Source: Trichlorobacter lovleyi SZ
Lineage (GTDB): Bacteria; Desulfobacterota; Desulfuromonadia; Geobacterales; Pseudopelobacteraceae
Length of the DNA: 32,000 nucleotides
Assembly: GCF_000020385.1 (NCBI RefSeq)
Contig: NC_010814.1
Location: 3,810,001-3,842,000, forward strand
Reading direction: 5' to 3'
Below are positions 2,663-11,493 of this stretch, in pieces. The notes beneath the pieces were generated by a model. It worked only from the letters and a program-made list of their open reading frames with translations, made no database searches and was not told where the DNA came from. The position numbers and the translations under genes were made by a program. Numbering within the stretch: position 1 is the first letter of the stretch; the number at the start of each line of letters is the position of its first letter.

Positions 2663-3874
2663 ATGGGACTCTTTCTTGATCTGTTCGAACGCCTCGGCCT
2701 GTTTGCCATCCTGTTCATATTCCTGATCCGTTTCAAGGCCTTTAAACGTCTGCTGACCGGCATCGCCAGCAGGAGGGACAAGCTGGTGCTGGCGTTCATG
2801 TTCGGCGGGGCCGGCATCATGGCCACCTACAGCGGCTTTGCCTTTCACGGCGCCATAGCCAACCTGCGCGGGGTGGCGGTGGCCCTGGCCGGTATCCTGG
2901 GCGGACCGCTGGTCGGTCTGGCGGCCGGACTGGTGGCGGGCATCCACCGCTATGCCATTGATCCTGCCGGACTGACCTCCCTTTCCTGCGGCATCGCCAC
3001 GGTCCTGCAGGGGGTGGTGGCGGCCTGGCTCTATCCCCGCCTGCGCCGGGTCGAATACGACATCTTTGCCGCCTTTGCAGTGGGTGCTGTCAATGAGATC
3101 CTGAAGATGACGCTGATCCTGCTGCTGGCCAAACCGTTCTCCTCGGCCCTGCACCTTGTGACGGTGCTGGCCTTTCCCTCGATCCTGGTCAACGGACTTG
3201 GCAACGCCGTCTTTGTCCAGCTGATCTCCACCGTCTTCCGTGAGCAACAGCTGGCCAAGGCGGAGATCCGGGCATTGCAGGCCCAGATCAACCCCCATTT
3301 CCTCTTCAATGCCATCTCCACCATCATCAGCTATACCCGCACCGACCCGGCCATCGCCACCAATCTGCTGGTAAAACTTGCAGAGTTCTTCCGCAACAGC
3401 ACCGCCACCACCGAGCGCGAGGTGCCGCTCTCGGTTGAGCTGCAACACTGCGAGGCCTATCTGGCGATTGAGCAGGCCCGTTTTGAGGAGCGGGTCCGGA
3501 TACACTACCAGATCGATGAGGACGCCCTGGACTGCCCGGTGCCACCCTTGATCCTGCAACCGCTGGTGGAAAACGGCATCCGCCACGGTATCCTGCCGCG
3601 GGATGCAGGCGGGGATATCACGATCCAGGCCCGCAAAGAGCAGCAGAACCTGCATATCAGGGTTGCGGACAACGGGGTCGGCATGGACCAGGCCAAGCTG
3701 TCCGGCCTGTTGACAACCCGGCAGCATCCCACCGGCAAAGAGGGGCTGGGGATTGCCCTGAAAAACGTCAATGCCCGCCTGGTGGCACTCTATGGCCGCA
3801 AACGGGCCCTCAGGATCGAGAGCAGCCCCGGCGCCGGCACAACCATCTCCTTTTCCATCCCGGTGACCGCATGA
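2663..3874 (+). CDS. LytS/YehU-type sensor histidine kinase (5TM-LYT membrane domain, no GAF domain)
   Basis: About 190 aa of hydrophobic N-terminal region runs directly into QINPHFLFNAISTI (LytS-family His_kinase box). HATPase_c motifs follow (LQPLVENGIRHG, ADNGVGM, GLGIALKNV). AGGAG lies 5 nt upstream of the ATG. Confidence 0.9.
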   Translation: MGLFLDLFERLGLFAILFIFLIRFKAFKRLLTGIASRRDKLVLAFMFGGAGIMATYSGFAFHGAIANLRGVAVALAGILGGPLVGLAAGLVAGIHRYAIDPAGLTSLSCGIATVLQGVVAAWLYPRLRRVEYDIFAAFAVGAVNEILKMTLILLLAKPFSSALHLVTVLAFPSILVNGLGNAVFVQLISTVFREQQLAKAEIRALQAQINPHFLFNAISTIISYTRTDPAIATNLLVKLAEFFRNSTATTEREVPLSVELQHCEAYLAIEQARFEERVRIHYQIDEDALDCPVPPLILQPLVENGIRHGILPRDAGGDITIQARKEQQNLHIRVADNGVGMDQAKLSGLLTTRQHPTGKEGLGIALKNVNARLVALYGRKRALRIESSPGAGTTISFSIPVTA

Positions 3875-4626
3875 ACATCACGGTCTTTCTGATCGACGAC
3901 GAGGCCCCTGCCCGGCGGGAACTGCGCTACCTGCTGGAGCAGCTGCCGGAACTTGAGATTGTCGGCGAGGCCGCCACCGCAACGGAAGGGCTGCGTCTGC
4001 TGCGCCAGCTGAAGCCCCGGTTGCTGTTTCTGGATATCCAGATGCCGGGACTGACCGGGATTGAACTGTCCCAGATCCTCCAGGAACTGCCGGAACGCCC
4101 GCTGGTGGTCTTTTCCACCGCCTACAGCCAGTTTGCGGTGGATGCCTTCAATCTTGAGGCGTTTGATTATCTGCTCAAGCCGGTCACCCTGGAGCGGCTT
4201 GGCAAGACCATCGACAAGGTACGCAAGCAGCTGGCTGCAACGCCGCCCGGCCCTGAAAGACCCCTGCCTGAACCGCCCCATGACGACCGCAAGTGGGTAG
4301 CGGCCCGCCAGGGCAGCAAGATCCTGCCGATAGCACCGGAGAGTATTGTTTTTGTCCGCTGTACCGAAGCGGTCACCCATATCCATACCGCCACGCGGAT
4401 CTACCAGACCAGCCACACCATTACCGCCCTGCAGGAACAGCTTGAGCCGTACGCCTTCTTCCGTGCCCATCGCAATTCACTGGTCAACCTCAACTGTATA
4501 CTGGAGATCATCCCCTGGTTCAGCGGCAGCTGCAAACTGGTGATGAACGACCCGGCCCGGACCGAGATCCTGGTCAGTCGCTACCATGCCAGGGATCTCA
4601 AGAAACACCTGATCTCCCAGGTCTGA
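3871..4626 (+). CDS. LytTR-family response regulator (REC + LytTR DNA-binding domain)
   Basis: ATGA start/stop overlap with the kinase gene. The receiver is canonical (FLIDDE, LLFLDIQMPGLTG, FSTAY, DYLLKP). The C-terminal LytTR domain reads FFRAHRNSLVNLNCILEI. Confidence 0.9.
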   Translation: MNITVFLIDDEAPARRELRYLLEQLPELEIVGEAATATEGLRLLRQLKPRLLFLDIQMPGLTGIELSQILQELPERPLVVFSTAYSQFAVDAFNLEAFDYLLKPVTLERLGKTIDKVRKQLAATPPGPERPLPEPPHDDRKWVAARQGSKILPIAPESIVFVRCTEAVTHIHTATRIYQTSHTITALQEQLEPYAFFRAHRNSLVNLNCILEIIPWFSGSCKLVMNDPARTEILVSRYHARDLKKHLISQV

Positions 4627-4692
4627 CCTGACGAACGCTCCCCTGCAGCACCTTCAGCTTCCGCTGCACGTCTCCTGAACAGGCACCGGAAA

Positions 4693-4726
4693 CCATTCAT
4701 CCCCTGTTTTATGCCATTCAGCCCCT
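4693..4726 (+). promoter_or_regulatory. Direct repeat CCATTCAKCCCCT x2 with 21-bp period; candidate LytTR operator
   Basis: ccattcatcccct (4693-4705) and ccattcagcccct (4714-4726) match at 12 of 13 positions and start 21 bp apart. They lie in the 275-bp gap between the LytTR regulator gene and the downstream dehydrogenase gene. LytTR regulators typically bind imperfect direct repeats spaced about two helical turns apart. Not tested. Confidence 0.3.
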
Positions 4727-4901
4727 CAATCTGCTGCTCAGCAGGTTGTGATTCAGCTTGCGCTGCAGCTGCGCTACGCTGAAATCATCCGGGACCACCC
4801 TTAGTGTAAATCTCAACATCCCGATATTCTTTGTTTCTGTCACCAACTCCAGTTGCCGGCCCACGGGCCTGAAGCTGGAAAACACCAAAGGAGGCAAGGC
4901 C

Positions 4902-6125
4902 ATGTCACAGATCCATGACGAGCAGGAAAGCATCTCAGCAGGTGGTTTCAGCAGGCGTGACTTCATCAAGACCGCAGCAGTGGTTGGTGCCGGCGTGCTG
5001 GCAGTACAGGCCGTGGGCAGCCCCAGGGAGGCCAATGCCGCTGAAGAGGCAAAGAAGGCCGCCACCGGAGCAACGGCAGCCGCAACAGGCAAGAGCGCCC
5101 TCAAGCTGGATCAGGTCTTAAAGGTTGCCCGTGAGAAGATGTATCCGCGCTGCCGGGTCTGTCCGGAATGCGACGGTGTGGCCTGTTCCGGCGAGGTCCC
5201 CGGCATGGGCGGCATCGATTCAGGCAAGGCCTTCCGCAACAATCTGGCCGCACTGGCCAAGTATGAGCTGAATATGCGGACCTTCCACGAGATCAAGAAG
5301 CCGGATACCTCGCTGACCCTGTTCGGGGTCAAACTGTCCATGCCGATCCTCTCCGGCATTACCGGTGGTGTGACCTATAACATGGGGCTGCAGGGCAAGG
5401 TTTCGGAAGAGGAGTACATCGAGGGGATCATTGCCGGTTGTATCCAGGCCGGTACGATCGGTTTTGCCGCTGACGGCATCGGTGATCCGCTCTCGGTCTA
5501 TCAGACCCGCCTGCAAACCGTGGCAAAATACCGCGGCAAGGCAGCAGGTCAGATCAAGCCCCGCACCCAGGCCGAGATCATCGAGCGGATCCGCCTGCTG
5601 GAAGCTGCCGGGGCACCGTTCTTTGCCATTGATATCGACTCGGCAGGACGGGCCTCACGGGCCCTGCCCGGCAAGACCGTGGAACCCAAAAACCTGAAAC
5701 AACTGCGTGAACTGGCGAACGCAACCAAAATGCCGTTCATCATCAAAGGGATCATGACCGTGGATGAAGCCAAACAGGCGGTTGACGTCGGCGCAGCCGG
5801 GATCGTGGTTTCCAACCACGGTGGACGGGTGATGGACCATACCCCCGGTACCGCCCAGGTGCTGGCGGCCATTGCCGACAAGGTCAAGGGGGATATCGTT
5901 ATCCTTGCTGACGGCGGTGTCCGTTACGGTGCCGATGTGCTCAAGATGCTGGCCCTGGGGGCTGATGCGGTGCTGGTGGGGCGTCCGCTGGTGCGTGGAT
6001 CGGTTGGCGGCGGACCGGAAGGTGTAGCCCTGATGTTGAAGAAGATGCAGGGTGAGCTGGTGGTTGCGATGACCCTGACCGGTACCGCTGATGTCAAAAA
6101 GGTCAGCAGGAGTATCCTGGTCTAA
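4902..6125 (+). CDS. FMN-dependent alpha-hydroxy-acid dehydrogenase/oxidase family protein with twin-arginine (Tat) signal peptide
   Basis: ATG 4902 is preceded by AAAGGAGG. The N-terminus MSQIHDEQESISAGGFSRRDFIKTAAVVGAGVLAVQAVGSPREANA carries the Tat consensus SRRDFIK, a hydrophobic region and an AxA site. FMN_dh hallmarks are present: VVSNHGGRVMD (catalytic His/Arg) and DGGVRYGADVLKMLALGADAVLVGRP. A Cys cluster CRVCPECDGVAC follows the signal peptide. Confidence 0.85.
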   Translation: MSQIHDEQESISAGGFSRRDFIKTAAVVGAGVLAVQAVGSPREANAAEEAKKAATGATAAATGKSALKLDQVLKVAREKMYPRCRVCPECDGVACSGEVPGMGGIDSGKAFRNNLAALAKYELNMRTFHEIKKPDTSLTLFGVKLSMPILSGITGGVTYNMGLQGKVSEEEYIEGIIAGCIQAGTIGFAADGIGDPLSVYQTRLQTVAKYRGKAAGQIKPRTQAEIIERIRLLEAAGAPFFAIDIDSAGRASRALPGKTVEPKNLKQLRELANATKMPFIIKGIMTVDEAKQAVDVGAAGIVVSNHGGRVMDHTPGTAQVLAAIADKVKGDIVILADGGVRYGADVLKMLALGADAVLVGRPLVRGSVGGGPEGVALMLKKMQGELVVAMTLTGTADVKKVSRSILV

Positions 6126-6152
6126 TTACGATAGCGGTGCAAGGAGCGACCC

Positions 6153-7133
6153 ATGTACAGAACACTCATGCTGATGATCTGCCTGCTGCTGACCCTGTCC
6201 GGTCTGTCATTTGCCACCCATGACAAGGCCCTGCTGTATGGGGGGGCTGGCCAGGGGCGGGTCATTTTTGACGGCAGACTGCACGCCTCCAAGGGGATGG
6301 TCTGCAACGATTGCCACAGTGCCATCTTTGCCACCCACAAGAAGGCCCTGATCACCATGCAGAACCATTTTGAGGATAAGGCCTGCTTTGTCTGCCACAA
6401 CGGCAAACGGGCCTTCAGCGATTGTGATTCCTGTCATCGCAAATTCGAGGCAGCCAGGACAGTGGTCAAGCTGTATGGTGCCGCCAGTGTGGTGGACAGC
6501 CTGATCAATCCCCACAAGGCAGCGGTTGAAAAGGCCACCGGCTACAGCCTTGAGATCGTCAAGAGCAATGCCGGCAAAGGTCTGATTGATCTGGCTGACG
6601 GCAAGTGCGATGCCTCACTGGCCTCTGCCTCGGTGGAGACGGTTGCCAAGGGGGCCAAGGCGGCCGGACGGGAGCTGGATACCACCAGGCTGCAGCTGCA
6701 TGCCATTCAGATGGATCAGGTGGTCTTTGCGGTCAATCCGTCCAACACGGTCCAAAGCCTGACCTTCCCGCAGCTGAAGGATATCCACACCGGCAAGATC
6801 ACCAACTGGAAGCAGCTGGGCGGCGCTGATCTGCAGATCAAGGTGGTCACCGACACCCTTTCCAGCGCCACCCGCGGCCTGATCAAGCAGGCGGTCCTGA
6901 AGAATGAGGAATATCTCAAGGAAACCCTGGCAGTCAATGTGGCCACCATCAGTGACGAGGTGGCTAAAGACCCTGCCGCCATTGGTGGCTTGGGGGCCGG
7001 CTTTGTCAAGGCGGGGGTAGTGGTGGTCAAGACGGACAAGATCGAACGTCCGCTGGGGCTGATCACGGTCGGCCCGCCCTCTGAAAAGGTGCGTAAGGTG
7101 ATTGAGGCCTACAAGGCTGCCATAGCCAGGTAA
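6153..7133 (+). CDS. Secreted triheme c7/c3-type cytochrome fused to a PstS-like (PBP_like_2) periplasmic binding domain
   Basis: AAGGAG lies 6 nt upstream of the ATG, and the Sec-type signal is MYRTLMLMICLLLTLSGLSFA. Three CXXCH motifs (CNDCH, CFVCH, CDSCH) fall within about 65 aa, arranged like the PpcA/c7 family. The C-terminal ~230 aa carry PstS-family signatures (SNAGKGLIDLADGKCDASLAS; LTFPQLKDIHTGKITNWKQLGGADLQIKVV). Confidence 0.8.
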   Translation: MYRTLMLMICLLLTLSGLSFATHDKALLYGGAGQGRVIFDGRLHASKGMVCNDCHSAIFATHKKALITMQNHFEDKACFVCHNGKRAFSDCDSCHRKFEAARTVVKLYGAASVVDSLINPHKAAVEKATGYSLEIVKSNAGKGLIDLADGKCDASLASASVETVAKGAKAAGRELDTTRLQLHAIQMDQVVFAVNPSNTVQSLTFPQLKDIHTGKITNWKQLGGADLQIKVVTDTLSSATRGLIKQAVLKNEEYLKETLAVNVATISDEVAKDPAAIGGLGAGFVKAGVVVVKTDKIERPLGLITVGPPSEKVRKVIEAYKAAIAR

Positions 7134-7151
7134 ACGGAAGGAGAGCTGCCC

Positions 7152-7346
7152 ATGTTTGGATTTGGTATGCCGGAACTGATCCTGATCCTGGTGATCTGCC
7201 TGGTGGTATTCGGACCGGGCAAGCTGCCTCAGCTGGGCTCGTCGCTGGGGGGCGCCCTCAAGGGTTTTCGCCGGGCAACGGAAGAACCGCTGAGCGTTGA
7301 TACCGTAGCCCGGGGTGCTGAGGCCGGTTCCCGGGAGGAGGCCTGA
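7152..7346 (+). CDS. tatA: Twin-arginine translocase subunit TatA/E
   Basis: The 64-aa sequence MFGFGMPELILILVICLVVFGPGKLPQLGSSLGGALKGFRRA is the canonical TatA TM helix, FGP hinge and amphipathic helix. GGAGAG lies upstream of the ATG. Confidence 0.9.
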   Translation: MFGFGMPELILILVICLVVFGPGKLPQLGSSLGGALKGFRRATEEPLSVDTVARGAEAGSREEA

Positions 7347-7357
7347 GTGTCGGACAG

Positions 7358-7390
7358 AAAAAGGGCCACCGTTACCCGGTGGCCCTTTTT
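7358..7390. terminator. Bidirectional rho-independent terminator between tatA and the convergent skp-like gene
   Basis: Stem GGGCCACCG (7363-7371) pairs with CGGTGGCCC (7377-7385) around a 5-nt loop. It is flanked by AAAAA (7358-7362) and TTTTT (7386-7390). Confidence 0.75.
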
Positions 7391-7415
7391 ACGCAGGCTC
7401 AAAGCTGCCTCCAGC

Positions 7416-8081
7416 CTACTTCGACTTTGCTTTTCCATCCAGCAGCGTGATCAGATCCACTGTGATGTCAAGCGGCTCAACCCCAGCCCCCAGAAAAAGC
7501 AACTCCCGGTTGATCACAACCGCGGTCAATCCCCTGGCCCTGCCAAGCTCGTCTGCAGCCTTGCCGATCGCCTCAAACAACCCCTTGGTCAGCTTCTGCT
7601 GGCTTTCCATCAGCTCCTTTTCCGACTTCAAGCCAAACTTCTGAAACTCTTCAATTTTTTTCTGAAACTCCCGCTGTTTTGCCTCCCGCTGCTGGGGTGA
7701 CAGGCCGGGCAGCTGACGTTCGGTATCAGCCTTGAACTTATCCAGCTGCTTCCGTTTTGCCTCAACCTGCTTCTGCAATTTGCTCTGTTGCGCCTTGATC
7801 TGCTGCTGGGCCGCCTTGCCCATGGCTGAATCGGTGGAAACCTTGTTGACATCCACCACACCGATCTTTGCTACCGCCACCGGCAGGGGAGCAGGCTTGG
7901 CTGCGGGCAGCAGGCTCAGACCCGGAGCAGGTTTCAGATCCGGTTGTGCCGCAGGGGCAGCTGGTGCAGGAACAGCTGGCGGCGTTGCCGGCGGGGCTGG
8001 CGGTTGCTCGGCAGCCTGGACGGTCAGAGCTGCCAGAAAAAGAAAAAACAAACAAAGTGTACTGCGCACGAAACGTCGCAT
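7416..8081 (-). CDS. OmpH/Skp-family periplasmic chaperone with Pro/Ala-rich linker
   Basis: A signal peptide (LFFLFLAALTVQA) is followed by a PAPPATPPAVPAPAAPAA linker. The OmpH-like coiled region follows: KIGVVDVNKVSTDSAMGKAAQQQIKAQQSKLQKQVEAKRKQLDKFKAD... Confidence 0.8.
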   Translation of the reverse strand: MRRFVRSTLCLFFLFLAALTVQAAEQPPAPPATPPAVPAPAAPAAQPDLKPAPGLSLLPAAKPAPLPVAVAKIGVVDVNKVSTDSAMGKAAQQQIKAQQSKLQKQVEAKRKQLDKFKADTERQLPGLSPQQREAKQREFQKKIEEFQKFGLKSEKELMESQQKLTKGLFEAIGKAADELGRARGLTAVVINRELLFLGAGVEPLDITVDLITLLDGKAKSK

Positions 8082-8159
8082 AAAGAACCTTTCAAACTCG
8101 AGATAGAGAAAACGTCATAGGGAAGGCCGGATGAGGGACGATGGCCTTCGCAACGGTTT

Positions 8160-9341
8160 TCAGTTGATACGGAATTTGCTGACCATCTGCTGCAGTTCTG
8201 CCGAGGATGCTGCCATCTGGGCAGCAGCGTTTCTGGTTTCATCAGCTCCGTGGGCCGCCTCACGGATCACCGAGGTAATGCCGTGCATGCTGCCGGAGAT
8301 GGCCACCGTTGAATTTGATTGCTGGGCAGCGGCAGAAGCGACATGGGACACCTGACTGAGCAGTTCACCGATCTTTTCACGGATACTGCCGATCGCCTCA
8401 CAGGAAAGCCGTACCCCTTCGCCCCCTTCATGCACGCTGCCGGCACTCTGTTCCATGGAACCGACCACGGCCCGCACATCCCGCTGCAGGGCAGTGATAA
8501 TTCCCTGGATCTCACGGGTGGCACTGGTGGTCCGTTCTGCCAGATGACGGACCTCATCGGCCACCACGGCAAAACCACGTCCCTGATCGCCTGCCCGGGC
8601 AGCCTCAATGGCGGCATTCAGGGCCAGCAGGTTGGTCTGATCGGCAATGTCACTGATGGTGGAAAGAATATCGCCGATCTGGTTGGAGGTGGCACCAAGA
8701 TTCTTGACTGCAGAGGTGGTCTCGGTCATGACCCCTTCAATACTGCCCATGACCACCGACATACCGGAAATAATCCGTTCTCCCTCCTTCGACACCTGCT
8801 CGGCCTCGGTGGCCATGGCCGACATGGTGTCGCAACTGCAGGCGATCTCACTGCTGACGCTGGCCATACCATCGGCTGACTGGCTGACCGCATCGGACTG
8901 GGAGGCAGCACTGCCGGTGCCGTCGGCAATGCTTTCAGCCGTCTGACGGAGCCGCTCCGATGCTGAAGCAACACTGTCGGTTGTCTGCCGGATACCGGAG
9001 ATCATGCCCTGCATGGCGGTCTGCAGGGTAGCGATGGAACGGATGATGGCGCTGATCTCGTTATTGCGCTTGGCCGAAATGGTCTGGCGCAGATTGCCCT
9101 CGGTCATCTCCTTCAGATACCCCAGAATCCGCTGCAGGGCTTCATTGACCGACCAGAACAGCAGGCCGCCGAAGAACGCACCGGCTGCCACAAACAGGGC
9201 AGTGGTCAGAATTGAGTAGGTCAGGGGCAGTGAGCGGCCGGCCCCGACACCAAAGATGATGCAGAGGCTGTAACAGAAGCAGAGCAGGTAAATACGGGTC
9301 TTGATCTTTAAACCCAAGTATTTATCGAGGAAGAAGCTCAT
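8160..9341 (-). CDS. Methyl-accepting chemotaxis protein (two TM helices, HAMP, MA domain; essentially no periplasmic domain)
   Basis: AAGGAG lies upstream of the ATG. The highly conserved MCP signalling hairpin is present: [40 protein letters not shown]. The two N-terminal TM segments are separated by only a few residues. Confidence 0.9.
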
Positions 9342-9405: not shown

Positions 9406-11415
9406 CTACTTTTTTGCAGCGGCCACCTCAACCGCCACATCATAGAGGGTACTACCCTCACCGCAGTCAGTCAGGCGCTGTGAGGTCAGGGCATTGATAC
9501 CACGCCCTGATTGGCTGCGGTCAAGCCAGTAGACCCCTTCACTGACCACGGTACCGGCTGGCACCTGTTCCGTTACCTGCAGCGCCAGCTCAATTGAGCC
9601 AAACCCATTGTAAACAGATACTGATTGCTCATCGCACAACTGCCGGGCAGCGGCATCAGCAGGGTGTATCAGCAGCGTCGGTTCTCCCCGCTTCTGCAGC
9701 AGGTCGTCACGCTCATTGAAGCTGGAGTTAAGGCTGTACAGGCTGACGCCTGGCTGCAACCGCAGCGGAAACCGGTCTGCCTCGGCATGGGTGGGCAGCA
9801 GGCAGGGCAGCGGCTGCGATTCGCGCTCATTGCGCAGCTCAATCTTTCCTGAGGGTGTCAACCAGGGGCCCCGTGGCGAGGTAGGGGGTGTCATCAGCAC
9901 CGGTTCTCCCTGCCGCAGCTGTTCCGTGATTGCAGCATCCCGCCAGCCATTGGGCTCAGCCAGCAGCTGATCAATCAGGTCATCTGCCGACTGCCTGAAG
10001 AACGGTTCACCCCAGCCCAGCCCCTCTGCCAGCAGGCAAAAGGTATCCCAGTTGGATTTTGCCTCACCCACCGGCGGGATTACCCTACTGCAACGTTGAG
10101 CCTGATAACTGCCGTAACTGCGGTACAGATCAGGATGTTCCAGCGAACTGGTGGCAGGCAGGACAAGATCGGCATAGCGGGCAGTATCAGTCATGAAACG
10201 TTCATGCACCACCGTGAACAGGTCCTCCCGCTCCAACCCTTTGATGACGGCATTCTGGTCCGGCGCGATGACTGCCGGGTTGGAGTGATAGACATACAGG
10301 CTCATCACTTTGGGATCATTCAGATTATTCAGGGCTGCACCCAGCTGGTTCATATTCACGATCCGGGTCGGGCCGGCCATGAAATCCTCACGGGTGACCA
10401 GCTGCAGCGGGAAGGCTGCTCCGGTGGAGGTGCCGCAGAACAGGCCTGCGCCTGGCCGCTGCCAGGCCCCGCTGACAGCGGGCAAGGCGGCAATGCAGCG
10501 AACCGTCATAGCGCCGTTGCCATAGCGGGTCAAACCACCCCCGACCTGGATCAGGGGCGCCTTGGCTGCAGCATAGGCCCGCGCCAGATCACGGATTGTA
10601 TCAGCCGGAAGCCCGCAGATGGCAGCCATCTGCTCAGGCCTGCAATCCGGCAGAACCTGGCCACAAAGTTCCTCAAAACCAATCACGTTGTCACGGATAA
10701 ATGCCTGATCCAGCAGCCCTTCTGCCACCATCACCTGCAGCATCCCCAGGGCCAGGGCGCTGTCACTGCCCGGCTTGACGATGATCGCCCGGTCCACGGC
10801 CTGACAGGTAGGAGTCTGGTAGGTATCAATAGCCCAGACCTGGGCCCCCTGTTTCCGGGCCGCCTGGCTGGCAGCCATGCTGTGGATACTGGTGGCAGCG
10901 GCGTTCAGCCCCCAGAGGATAATCAGGTCACTCTTGCTGCGCTCTGCAGGATCAAGGGCCGGGGTATCCCCCATCACCGCCTTCCAGCCGTAATCCTTGG
11001 CAGGGGTACAGATGGTGCGGGCCAGACGGCTGGCCCCCAGTTTATGGAAGAAGGGATGGCCGCTGTTACGCTGCACCAGCCCCATGGTACCGGCATAGGA
11101 ATAGGGCAGGATTGACTCGGCACCATACTGCGGAATGATCTCCTGCCAGCGGGAGCAGATCCGCTGCACCGCCTCGTCCCAGCTGATCGGAGTAAACCGG
11201 CCGCTCCCCTTGGGGCCGGTCCGCAGCAGTGGTCTGGTCAGACGCTGAGGCGAGTGGACGGTCTGCTGGTACTGCCGCATCTTGCCGCAGATAAAGCCCT
11301 GAGTAATCGGATGATGCGGGTCAGCCTCAATCTTGATTGCCCTGTCATTTTCAACAGTTACCAACAGGCCGCAGGCATCTGGACAGTCATAGGGGCAGAC
11401 AGAACGGTAGCGCAT
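9406..11415 (-). CDS. Molybdopterin (bis-MGD) oxidoreductase family protein, cytoplasmic, substrate unknown
   Basis: I prefer the start MRYRSVCPYDCPDACGLLV (N-terminal 4Fe-4S Mo/W-bis-MGD-type Cys motif) at 11415, which has AAGGAG upstream. The ORF-track start at 11478 adds 21 aa with no SD. A C-terminal molybdopterin-binding barrel is present (LLIHPADAAARQL...VPAGTVVSEGVYW). There is no Tat signal. Confidence 0.85.
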   Translation of the reverse strand: MRYRSVCPYDCPDACGLLVTVENDRAIKIEADPHHPITQGFICGKMRQYQQTVHSPQRLTRPLLRTGPKGSGRFTPISWDEAVQRICSRWQEIIPQYGAESILPYSYAGTMGLVQRNSGHPFFHKLGASRLARTICTPAKDYGWKAVMGDTPALDPAERSKSDLIILWGLNAAATSIHSMAASQAARKQGAQVWAIDTYQTPTCQAVDRAIIVKPGSDSALALGMLQVMVAEGLLDQAFIRDNVIGFEELCGQVLPDCRPEQMAAICGLPADTIRDLARAYAAAKAPLIQVGGGLTRYGNGAMTVRCIAALPAVSGAWQRPGAGLFCGTSTGAAFPLQLVTREDFMAGPTRIVNMNQLGAALNNLNDPKVMSLYVYHSNPAVIAPDQNAVIKGLEREDLFTVVHERFMTDTARYADLVLPATSSLEHPDLYRSYGSYQAQRCSRVIPPVGEAKSNWDTFCLLAEGLGWGEPFFRQSADDLIDQLLAEPNGWRDAAITEQLRQGEPVLMTPPTSPRGPWLTPSGKIELRNERESQPLPCLLPTHAEADRFPLRLQPGVSLYSLNSSFNERDDLLQKRGEPTLLIHPADAAARQLCDEQSVSVYNGFGSIELALQVTEQVPAGTVVSEGVYWLDRSQSGRGINALTSQRLTDCGEGSTLYDVAVEVAAAKK

Positions 11416-11493
11416 GGCAGTAACTCCTTGCAGTAGGGCTTGGGTTAAAAGATAGTAGCCTGCCTGTTTTAACAACACAATTCCGAAATGAAT

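Follow-up and report, generated by a model that had tools for sequence, protein, structure and literature searches.

The genome of Trichlorobacter lovleyi SZ carries, within a 32,000-nucleotide stretch of contig NC_010814.1 (positions 3,810,001 to 3,842,000; here called the window, to which all unprefixed coordinates refer), a gene for a flavin mononucleotide (FMN)-dependent dehydrogenase with a predicted twin-arginine translocation (Tat) signal and, directly behind it, a gene for a triheme c7-type cytochrome fused to a PstS-fold binding domain. We find that the conserved core of this locus is the pair formed by the Tat-signal FMN_dh enzyme and the small multiheme cytochrome c that immediately follows it, and that this adjacency recurs over at least five phyla, in exported copies of the enzyme only. 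Taken with the LytS-type kinase and LytTR-type regulator encoded upstream, the locus is in our judgement probably an operon under two-component control that encodes a periplasmic flavoprotein:cytochrome c dehydrogenase. It represents a real, widespread and apparently undescribed variant of the periplasmic flavoprotein:cytochrome c systems.

The pair was traced through 104 related loci from genomes and metagenomes, with one E. coli reference locus (L102) in addition, all of which were searched with the window proteins and for CXXCH-rich open reading frames (ORFs); a genome scan with a single protein query gave 14 loci and a metagenome scan with an alignment added more. The enzyme occurs in two forms, one exported, with an N-terminal extension that bears an invariant pair of arginines (RR), and one cytoplasmic, of approximately 340 aa and without the extension. 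A small multiheme cytochrome c is encoded directly downstream of about 30 of the 35 exported copies, against none of the 49 cytoplasmic ones. The pair is present in Trichlorobacter/Geobacter, Oryzomonas, Geomonas and one Geopsychrobacteraceae genome, and also in Anaeromyxobacter diazotrophicus, Propionivibrio dicarboxylicus, Shewanella, Syntrophorhabdaceae and Thermodesulfovibrionales, as well as in peat and human-gut metagenomes, where the gut partner is a 90-aa triheme c3-like protein. Desulfuromonadota, Myxococcota and Betaproteobacteria are thus among the groups represented. The original prediction, made from the DNA sequence of the window, had treated enzyme and c7-type cytochrome as one unit; far from lacking synteny in related genomes, the two are clearly syntenic across phyla.

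Exported copies without a cytochrome are found on one metagenome contig and in Serratia, Brenneria and Symbiopectobacterium. The enzymes of the last three (L010-L013; Symbiopectobacterium, Serratia marcescens and Brenneria roseae) are approximately 90% identical to Shewanella baltica proteins, and their loci keep the SBP_bac_3 kinase and sigma-54 regulator and, where examined (Serratia, L011), a neighbour of the 3-keto-disaccharide-hydrolase family. These Enterobacterales copies look like recent horizontal transfers that left the cytochrome behind. A metagenome contig of the same species as the window (Ga0209016_1001491; L022, positions 5001-6231) is near-identical to it, the LytTR and TatA proteins being 100% identical. 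In L022 a 10-nt insertion, TGAGGAGGCA, just past the Tat cleavage site shifts the reading frame, which makes the copy a natural pseudogene variant unless the assembly is in error; the locus was counted as exported on the ground that its DNA encodes the same signal.

The enzyme (407 aa, 4902..6125, forward strand, as are all five genes of the locus) matches the Pfam family FMN_dh (PF01070) with 207.8 bits against a cut-off of 24.9. Its first 46 residues (4902..5039) read as a twin-arginine signal peptide, with the motif SRRDFIK, a hydrophobic stretch and ANA ahead of the likely cleavage site, which was placed by eye. Two Tat profiles score above their cut-offs here (PF10518, TAT_signal, 24.1 against 22.7; TIGR01409, 20.2 against 16.7), and the arginine pair and F21 are invariant across 30 homologues, in agreement with the twin-arginine signal proposed at the outset. 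The AlphaFold (AF2) model has a mean predicted local distance difference test (pLDDT) score of 77, most of the barrel lying above 90, and a Foldseek search with it retrieves mandelate oxidase, glycolate oxidase, human HAO1 and long-chain hydroxy-acid oxidase at E values of about 1e-21, with target-normalised TM-scores (TMt) of 0.77-0.80 and approximately 25% identity. The C-terminal half can be aligned residue by residue with these solved enzymes and keeps their SNHGGR and DGGVR (DGGxR) motifs. Within the same 30 homologues K282 (in IKGI) and H306 and R309 (in SNHGGR) are invariant and align to HAO1 and LOX; they correspond to Lys230, His254 and Arg257 in spinach glycolate oxidase numbering. 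D244 is likewise invariant.

The N-terminal half is too divergent for HMMER alignment to solved structures, and the residue equivalences given for it (Asp191, Lys219, D244, R250 and R253) follow the order of the strands in the model. By this order, strand 4 ends in D244-I-D-S-A-G-R250-A-S-R253, and D244 would fall against Asp157 of glycolate oxidase, and R250 and R253 where its carboxylate-binding Arg164 lies. R250 and R253 occur only in exported forms, the cytoplasmic ones reading DIDAAGLITL at this point. Because both arginines are kept by the exported clade and missing from its cytoplasmic relatives, the comparison suggests continued carboxylate binding in the exported clade.

A further feature marks the whole subfamily. 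The loop that holds Tyr24 in glycolate oxidase is replaced by CRVCPECDGVAC...PGMGG, an invariant four-cysteine motif (C84, C87, C90 and C95; 5151..5186) seen in the homologue alignment and not noticed by the original prediction. No clade, whether exported or cytoplasmic, has lost any of the four cysteines, their spacing being different in gammaproteobacteria, and the loop that carries them has low pLDDT in the AF2 model. None of the solved-structure matches carries the motif, and neither a curated NCBIfam family nor a solved structure nor an assigned function was found for the four-cysteine subfamily of PF01070. The obvious reading is a metal or iron-sulfur centre beside the flavin; such a presumed centre would suit both export through the Tat pathway and a role in relaying electrons to heme. 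The cytoplasmic homologues (L014 and L026-L101, approximately 340 aa) share the motif together with the catalytic His, Arg and Lys. They have no consistent gene context in the loci surveyed. That context was also considered as a clue to substrate and set aside as too thin, consisting of one CstA/BtsT-like and two TauE-like neighbours recognised by eye; the first of these is a transporter gene in L027, CstA/BtsT-like from its N-terminal sequence, which the cytoplasmic copy directly follows.

The partner of the exported enzyme in the window is a 326-aa protein (6153..7133) with a classical Sec-type signal peptide (residues 1-21), a triheme c7-type domain (residues ~22-98) and a PstS-fold domain (residues ~104-326); the Pfam matches are Cytochrome_C7 at residues 37-96 and PBP_like_2 at residues 107-286. 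Three CXXCH heme sites (C51-C54-H55, C78-C81-H82 and C91-C94-H95) are present, and the heme part exceeds the cut-offs of PF14522 (40.1 against 24.8) and TIGR04257 (48.2 against 40). Both domains, the hemes and the Sec-type N-terminus of the fusion described by the original prediction are thus as it had them. Against the PpcA-type c7 orthology model (NF043011) the protein scores 21.4 bits, short of the cut-off of 120, and the closest Protein Data Bank (PDB) relatives of the c7 part are the GSU1996 domains. Over its whole length the fusion shares 94% identity with a T. lovleyi protein. As a separate observation, four proteins of approximately 610-656 aa (P0360, P0367, P0403 and P0404) start with a c7 domain about 42-54% identical to that of the window.

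The binding domain belongs to PF12849 (PBP_like_2; 76.4 against a cut-off of 27), and its model is confident (pLDDT above 90), with the small PstS proteins 4exl, 1twy, 9l8j and 4gd5 as best Foldseek matches. The PstS equivalog TIGR02136 is not reached (83.2 against 206.6). In comparison with phosphate-bound 4gd5, SREDGSGTR has become TDTLSSATR and MASRDL has become LASASV, and the first loop reads GAAS; a role as phosphate binder was rejected, both phosphate-binding arginines being replaced. The remodelled motifs GAAS, SNAGKG, CDAS.ASA and TD..SSATRG are nearly invariant in the family, and for this reason the domain would appear to be under strong constraint for a ligand or partner other than phosphate. 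Wherever a binding protein is present the gene order is enzyme, c7, binding protein. The latter two are separate genes in Geomonas limicola, G. silvestris, Oryzomonas and several metagenome contigs, and form a single gene in Trichlorobacter, Geomonas edaphica, Anaeromyxobacter and Propionivibrio; such fusions are rare, with two or three clusters at 50% identity among 1.84 billion representatives. Their occurrence in both separate and fused form is Rosetta-stone evidence for a functional link between the two. Many loci (Shewanella, Geopsychrobacteraceae, Thermodesulfovibrionales, and gut and peat contigs) have no binding protein, and it is therefore not essential to the core. The PstS-like fold noted earlier is accordingly confirmed, but as a frequent though optional third member that is usually encoded separately rather than as a constant, fused one.

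Genes for a LytS-type sensor histidine kinase and a LytTR-type response regulator precede the enzyme gene in seven of seven Desulfuromonadota loci and nowhere else in the survey. In the window the kinase (403 aa, 2663..3874; Pfam 5TM-5TMR_LYT, His_kinase and HATPase_c) and regulator (251 aa, 3871..4626; Response_reg and LytTR) genes overlap by 4 nt, the start of the second lying within the end of the first. The best NCBIfam match of the regulator is BtsR, at 166 bits and under the cut-off of 246 bits. In the gap behind it stands the direct repeat CCATTCA[T/G]CCCCT, with copies 21 bp apart at 4693..4705 (CCATTCATCCCCT) and 4714..4726 (CCATTCAGCCCCT) and a degenerate third copy about 21 bp further on (4735-4747). 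The repeat pair is found once in the window, where 0.04 occurrences are expected by chance. Two or three GCCATTCA copies with a period of 20-21 bp stand equally far upstream of the enzyme gene in the relatives L001-L007, and exact copies are confined to these Desulfuromonadota loci among 102 loci. LytTR operators have been described as repeats of 9-11 nt with spacers of 11-13 nt, the YpdB site being GGCATTTCAT (PMC4847170). The geometry in the window fits this description of two or more repeats upstream of the regulated gene, and we propose the 21-bp-phased repeats, each copy a candidate half-site for the regulator, as a putative LytTR operator approximately 190 bp upstream of the enzyme gene. 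The LytS/LytTR link drawn by the original prediction thus extends to all seven loci, together with a conserved putative operator.

In other lineages the enzyme gene lies beside other regulators. Propionivibrio has a GntR/FCD regulator upstream instead, from the family to which LldR, PdhR and GlcC, the regulators for lactate, pyruvate and glycolate, belong. An SBP_bac_3 sensor kinase with a sigma-54 activator is found in Shewanella, Serratia and one metagenome locus, and the gut loci have a LysR-HTH/PBP_like regulator. The pyruvate contacts of E. coli BtsS are Arg72, Arg99, Cys110 and Ser113, of which Ser113 is essential in BtsS (PMC10653868). When the window kinase and its relatives are aligned with BtsS, R72, R99 and C110 are conserved throughout, and since most of the pyruvate pocket is kept the kinase probably senses an acid of the pyruvate or lactate kind.

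Several observations weigh against reading the module as a 2-hydroxy-acid dehydrogenase under pyruvate-type control. The enzyme lacks both substrate tyrosines that characterise the hydroxy-acid oxidases: Tyr24 is lost with its loop, and by the strand order of the model Lys219 takes the place of Tyr129 at the end of strand 3 (QIK(219)P where classical enzymes read QLY), while Asp191 at the end of strand 2 replaces Trp108 (glycolate oxidase numbering). With these three positions changed, a compound other than a simple 2-hydroxy acid may be the substrate. Scores also fall far under the NCBIfam equivalog cut-offs, at 144.6 against 550 for LldD, 157.4 against 376 for PRK11197, 108.8 against 645 for lactate oxidase and 123 against 471 for MftD. 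In Shewanella and Enterobacterales the 3-keto-disaccharide-hydrolase-family neighbour indicates a different class of substrate for that clade. On the regulatory side, Ser113 is Ala in the window kinase and in all aligned relatives, and the entire GAF region (BtsS residues ~212-370) is absent from the window kinase. The kinase orthologues in L001, L006, L007 and L018 (564-567 aa) all retain this region; the deletion is shared by the same-species contig L022 and is thus real and not an assembly artefact. The role of the binding domain, finally, is left unexplained by this reading.

These points narrow the claims of the original prediction without removing them. Its hydroxy-acid enzyme keeps family, fold and the catalytic His, Arg and Lys, but departs from the known enzymes in substrate tyrosines and equivalog scores; on this comparison the protein is best described as a PF01070 superfamily member that would act like a 2-hydroxy-acid dehydrogenase, and to call it a lactate or glycolate dehydrogenase would be an inference that membership of a characterised family does not supply. 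Its idea of pyruvate-type sensing survives for R72, R99 and C110 but is weakened by the alanine at position 113 and the missing GAF region; natural variants at Ser113 and Cys110 have been suggested to sense, possibly, related ligands such as lactate (PMC10653868).

It is accordingly to be weighed whether export and c7 wiring hold while the substrate is something other than a simple 2-hydroxy monocarboxylate (perhaps an amine, a sugar acid, or a hydroxy acid that bears a second carboxylate, a sulfonate or an amino substituent), with the PstS-fold protein supplying specificity. We regard this as less likely than not, but as a serious alternative. The replaced tyrosines and tryptophan, with invariant Lys219 and Asp191 at the barrel rim, would agree with it, as would the highly conserved binding protein with its remodelled pocket. 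The gene context can be read in the same direction, namely the 3-keto-disaccharide-hydrolase neighbour in gammaproteobacteria, the Propionivibrio copy with KduI, epimerase and TRAP genes nearby, and the TauE-like neighbours (identified by eye from N-terminal sequence) of some cytoplasmic relatives. Set against this are the arginines R250 and R253, kept by the exported clade at the place of the carboxylate-binding Arg164 and absent from cytoplasmic relatives, the association with regulators of the pyruvate and lactate kinds (the BtsS-like pocket and GntR/FCD), and the many loci that have no binding protein at all.

The direction of electron flow is a further point of the same kind, since NapC/NirT and c3-type partners are commoner with reductases and the context does not fix the direction. 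The enzyme could in principle work in reverse as a periplasmic terminal reductase, in which menaquinol would pass electrons through a NapC- or CbcL-like protein and the c7 cytochrome to an external acceptor, which might be a 2-oxo acid or some other activated compound, much as in the flavocytochrome c3 fumarate reductase of Shewanella. In the peat loci a NapC/NirT tetraheme gene follows that of c7 beside an MtrB/PioB porin; the gut loci have the c3-type triheme partner; L020 has a c7-multiheme-cytochrome b fusion; and the window, L002 and L022 have an upstream gene for the FAD subunit of a flavocytochrome c. All of these would be at home in a reductase. In standard redox potential, however, the couples pyruvate/lactate (-190 mV), oxaloacetate/malate and glyoxylate/glycolate all lie at or below menaquinone (-74 mV), and 2-oxo acids are for that reason poor respiratory acceptors. 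Moreover, the catalytic base (His) and the Arg have the arrangement seen in oxidising enzymes, and to our knowledge the characterised hydroxy-acid enzymes of PF01070 act as oxidases or dehydrogenases. We consider the reductase unlikely and prefer a dehydrogenase that delivers electrons to the cytochrome.

Two of these loci have features of their own. In the peat contig L039 (3541-8549) the enzyme-c7 pair is accompanied by the NapC/NirT tetraheme, the MtrB/PioB porin and an ORF with eight CXXCH motifs, and the porin and multiheme ORF resemble an outer-membrane electron conduit. The L020 fusion (7206-9095) encodes a 629-aa protein composed of c7, further hemes and an Ni_hydr_CYTB cytochrome b, with a PBP_like_2 gene upstream; it is of the same kind as the four proteins of approximately 610-656 aa and shows the c7 partner fused a second time, independently.

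The arrangement of the genes in the window is that of a compact operon. The coordinates of the five same-strand ORFs given by the original prediction were all reproduced, as were the 275-bp gap (4627-4901) between regulator and enzyme with its 21-bp-period repeat and the spacers of 27 and 18 nt that separate enzyme from fusion and fusion from tatA, and Pfam and NCBIfam profile searches of the five proteins agree with its domain assignments. Each of the two spacers holds a GGAG-type ribosome-binding site. Directly after tatA a hairpin (7358..7390; -27.4 kcal/mol, z = -4.3, with none of 200 shuffled sequences folding equally well) has an A-run at one flank and a T-run at the opposite flank; situated in the interval that separates tatA from skp (OmpH), a convergent gene, it is a bidirectional intrinsic terminator that ends the operon and serves skp too. 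Given the short spacers with their ribosome-binding sites and this strong terminator, the enzyme, fusion and tatA genes look like one transcription unit. A scan for consensus promoters and terminators found no promoter in the 275-bp gap and missed the terminator after tatA, which folding revealed. The -10-like TACGCT at 4775-4780 is conserved in relatives, as judged by eye, and is not claimed as a promoter.

The last gene, tatA (7152..7346, 64 aa; Pfam TatA_B_E), is a genuine member of the TatA/E family (TIGR01411, 62.9 against 53.9; PF02416, 59.3 against 21). A tblastn comparison across the loci places it beside the module in the closest relatives L001 and L022 (Trichlorobacter) alone. The copy is therefore present as first noted, but its place in a conserved module was rejected on this distribution, and only this lineage has it at the end of the operon.

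That the genes are neighbours by chance and do not work together is very improbable. Such a view could point to the narrow distribution of tatA and to the flanking skp, methyl-accepting chemotaxis protein (MCP) and molybdoenzyme genes, which vary between loci. It is countered by the adjacency of enzyme and cytochrome in at least five phyla and in exported copies only, by c7 and binding protein occurring both apart and fused, by the conserved operator repeat, and by short spacers with a single terminator after tatA.

We propose that the system works as follows. The LytS-type kinase would sense external pyruvate, lactate or a close analogue, probably one of these, and the LytTR regulator would then bind the phased repeats and switch the operon on. 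Still in the cytoplasm, the enzyme would take up FMN and, at its four cysteines, a metal or iron-sulfur centre; it would then be exported folded by Tat, while the cytochrome would leave by the Sec route. Once in the periplasm, the enzyme would oxidise a small (S)-2-hydroxy carboxylate to the 2-oxo acid, and FMN would hand the electrons on to the c7 hemes, possibly with the cysteine-bound centre as a relay. The hemes would deliver them to the periplasmic cytochrome pool of Geobacter-type bacteria, and so to extracellular or other terminal acceptors; in other lineages the enzyme-c7 pair may be coupled to the quinone pool through the NapC/NirT tetraheme or the c7-multiheme-cytochrome b fusion. 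The PstS-fold domain is probably a docking or ligand-capturing subunit, once a separate third gene and here fused to c7. The co-transcribed tatA would be an addition peculiar to Trichlorobacter, one that may increase the capacity for export.

In function the system comes closest to yeast flavocytochrome b2 (Cyb2, L-lactate:cytochrome c oxidoreductase); the closest architectural analogues are the two-subunit flavocytochromes c, and the closest regulatory ones are BtsSR and YpdAB. Flavocytochrome b2, of which entries 1fcb and 1kbi are among the PDB matches of the enzyme, shares the FMN_dh fold with the same His, Arg and Lys and, as proposed for the present enzyme, passes electrons to a heme carrier outside the compartment equivalent to the cytoplasm. 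Its carrier is a fused b5-type domain with one b heme, whereas the carrier here is a triheme c7, separate or fused to a binding domain; the enzyme itself differs in its Tat signal, its four cysteines and its replaced substrate tyrosines, and Pfam and alignment identify in its N-terminus a Tat signal and linker, with no cytochrome b5 domain. LldD and the lactate, glycolate and mandelate oxidases agree in fold and in the C-terminal half with SNHGGR and DGGxR, but identity to them is only about 25%, and in place of quinone or O2 the exported enzyme would use a dedicated cytochrome as acceptor. FccAB (flavocytochrome c sulfide dehydrogenase) and PchCF (p-cresol methylhydroxylase) each join a periplasmic flavoprotein subunit to a c-type cytochrome subunit. 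They are alike in pairing a flavoprotein dehydrogenase with a c-type cytochrome in the periplasm, and unlike in using flavin adenine dinucleotide (FAD), unrelated folds and mono- or diheme class I cytochromes where the present system has an FMN TIM barrel and a triheme c7. The c7 domain has three CXXCH motifs in approximately 75 residues, as do the PpcA family and the GSU1996 domains, yet it is not a PpcA orthologue and is tied by gene order to one enzyme and fused to a binding domain. BtsS/BtsR and YpdA/YpdB of E. coli share the domain types, R72/R99/C110 and direct repeats of about 10 nt at a 21-bp period; in the window, however, the target is a periplasmic redox operon rather than a transporter, Ser113 is replaced and GAF is missing.

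Export within the family was presented by the original prediction as exceptional, and this view does not hold, given that the exported clade is widespread. In addition, PauLDH of Photorhabdus australis is an FMN-dependent enzyme with a predicted Tat signal that acts on several 2-hydroxy acids and prefers S-2-hydroxyvalerate (PMC9670274). As PauLDH has already been expressed and assayed, an exported PF01070 enzyme is not unprecedented. It was placed in the classical LOx cluster, where the tyrosines are well conserved, and no cytochrome partner was reported (PMC9670274). PauLDH was rejected as an orthologue on account of this placement and of there being no Photorhabdus protein among the 120 best relatives of the gammaproteobacterial clade, and it serves as a loose precedent only.

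Beyond the operon, the window holds further genes of possible interest. Upstream of the kinase lie a gene for a flavocytochrome c FAD-binding subunit (50-1276; TIGR01813, 497 bits), clipped by the start of the window, and one for an MFS_3 transporter (1336-2559) directly before the kinase. The flavocytochrome c subunit gene adjoins LytS in L002 and L022 as well, and its product may be a second periplasmic redox enzyme of the neighbourhood. Downstream, a molybdopterin oxidoreductase (9406-11478) was considered as a member of the system, L020 also having one downstream, and was rejected at only 24% identity in a variable neighbourhood. MCP genes occur within a few kb of the module in the window (8160-9341, reverse strand), L001 (1595-2770) and L009 (2121-3179), and near it also in L004, L005 and L018 (approximately 3000-4100), these loci being unrelated. 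Their proximity is a weak hint of chemotaxis towards the same ligand; it may be due to chance, MCP signalling domains being highly conserved.

Full-text literature searches, which missed most subscription journals, found no description of a bacterial FMN_dh:c7 system, in line with the original statement that no characterised system of this composition was known. Searches on periplasmic lactate or hydroxy-acid:cytochrome c systems yielded papers on yeast Cyb2 and unrelated work only, and the G. lovleyi genome paper makes no mention of these genes. Going further, and with more doubt than confidence, we suggest that these loci represent an uncharacterised class of periplasmic enzyme in many anaerobes, in which an FMN TIM barrel, equipped with a metal or iron-sulfur centre on its cysteines and served by a triheme cytochrome of its own, would inject electrons from an extracellular organic acid directly into the periplasmic multiheme network. 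On this view the electrons would pass by uptake and cytoplasmic metabolism and, in Geobacter-like cells, the quinones as well, and a solute-binding protein would have been recruited as a non-transport subunit.

In metal-reducing and electroactive bacteria, electrons are commonly pictured as reaching the periplasmic cytochrome pool from the inner membrane, and the accepted periplasmic donors are mainly hydrogenase and formate dehydrogenase. If our reading is correct, a Tat-exported organic-acid dehydrogenase with its own c7 cytochrome would add a carbon substrate to this short list. Bacteria would then have a modular equivalent of flavocytochrome b2, and the enzyme and its cytochrome, being paired by nature, would be of interest for bioelectrochemical sensors. 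The module is present in the cultivated strains Trichlorobacter lovleyi, Geomonas, Anaeromyxobacter diazotrophicus, Propionivibrio dicarboxylicus and Shewanella baltica, and with cultivated hosts, a compact operon and a defined regulator and operator the hypothesis is directly testable. Furthermore, the four-cysteine motif, which is common to hundreds of unstudied cytoplasmic relatives, marks an entire subfamily of PF01070.

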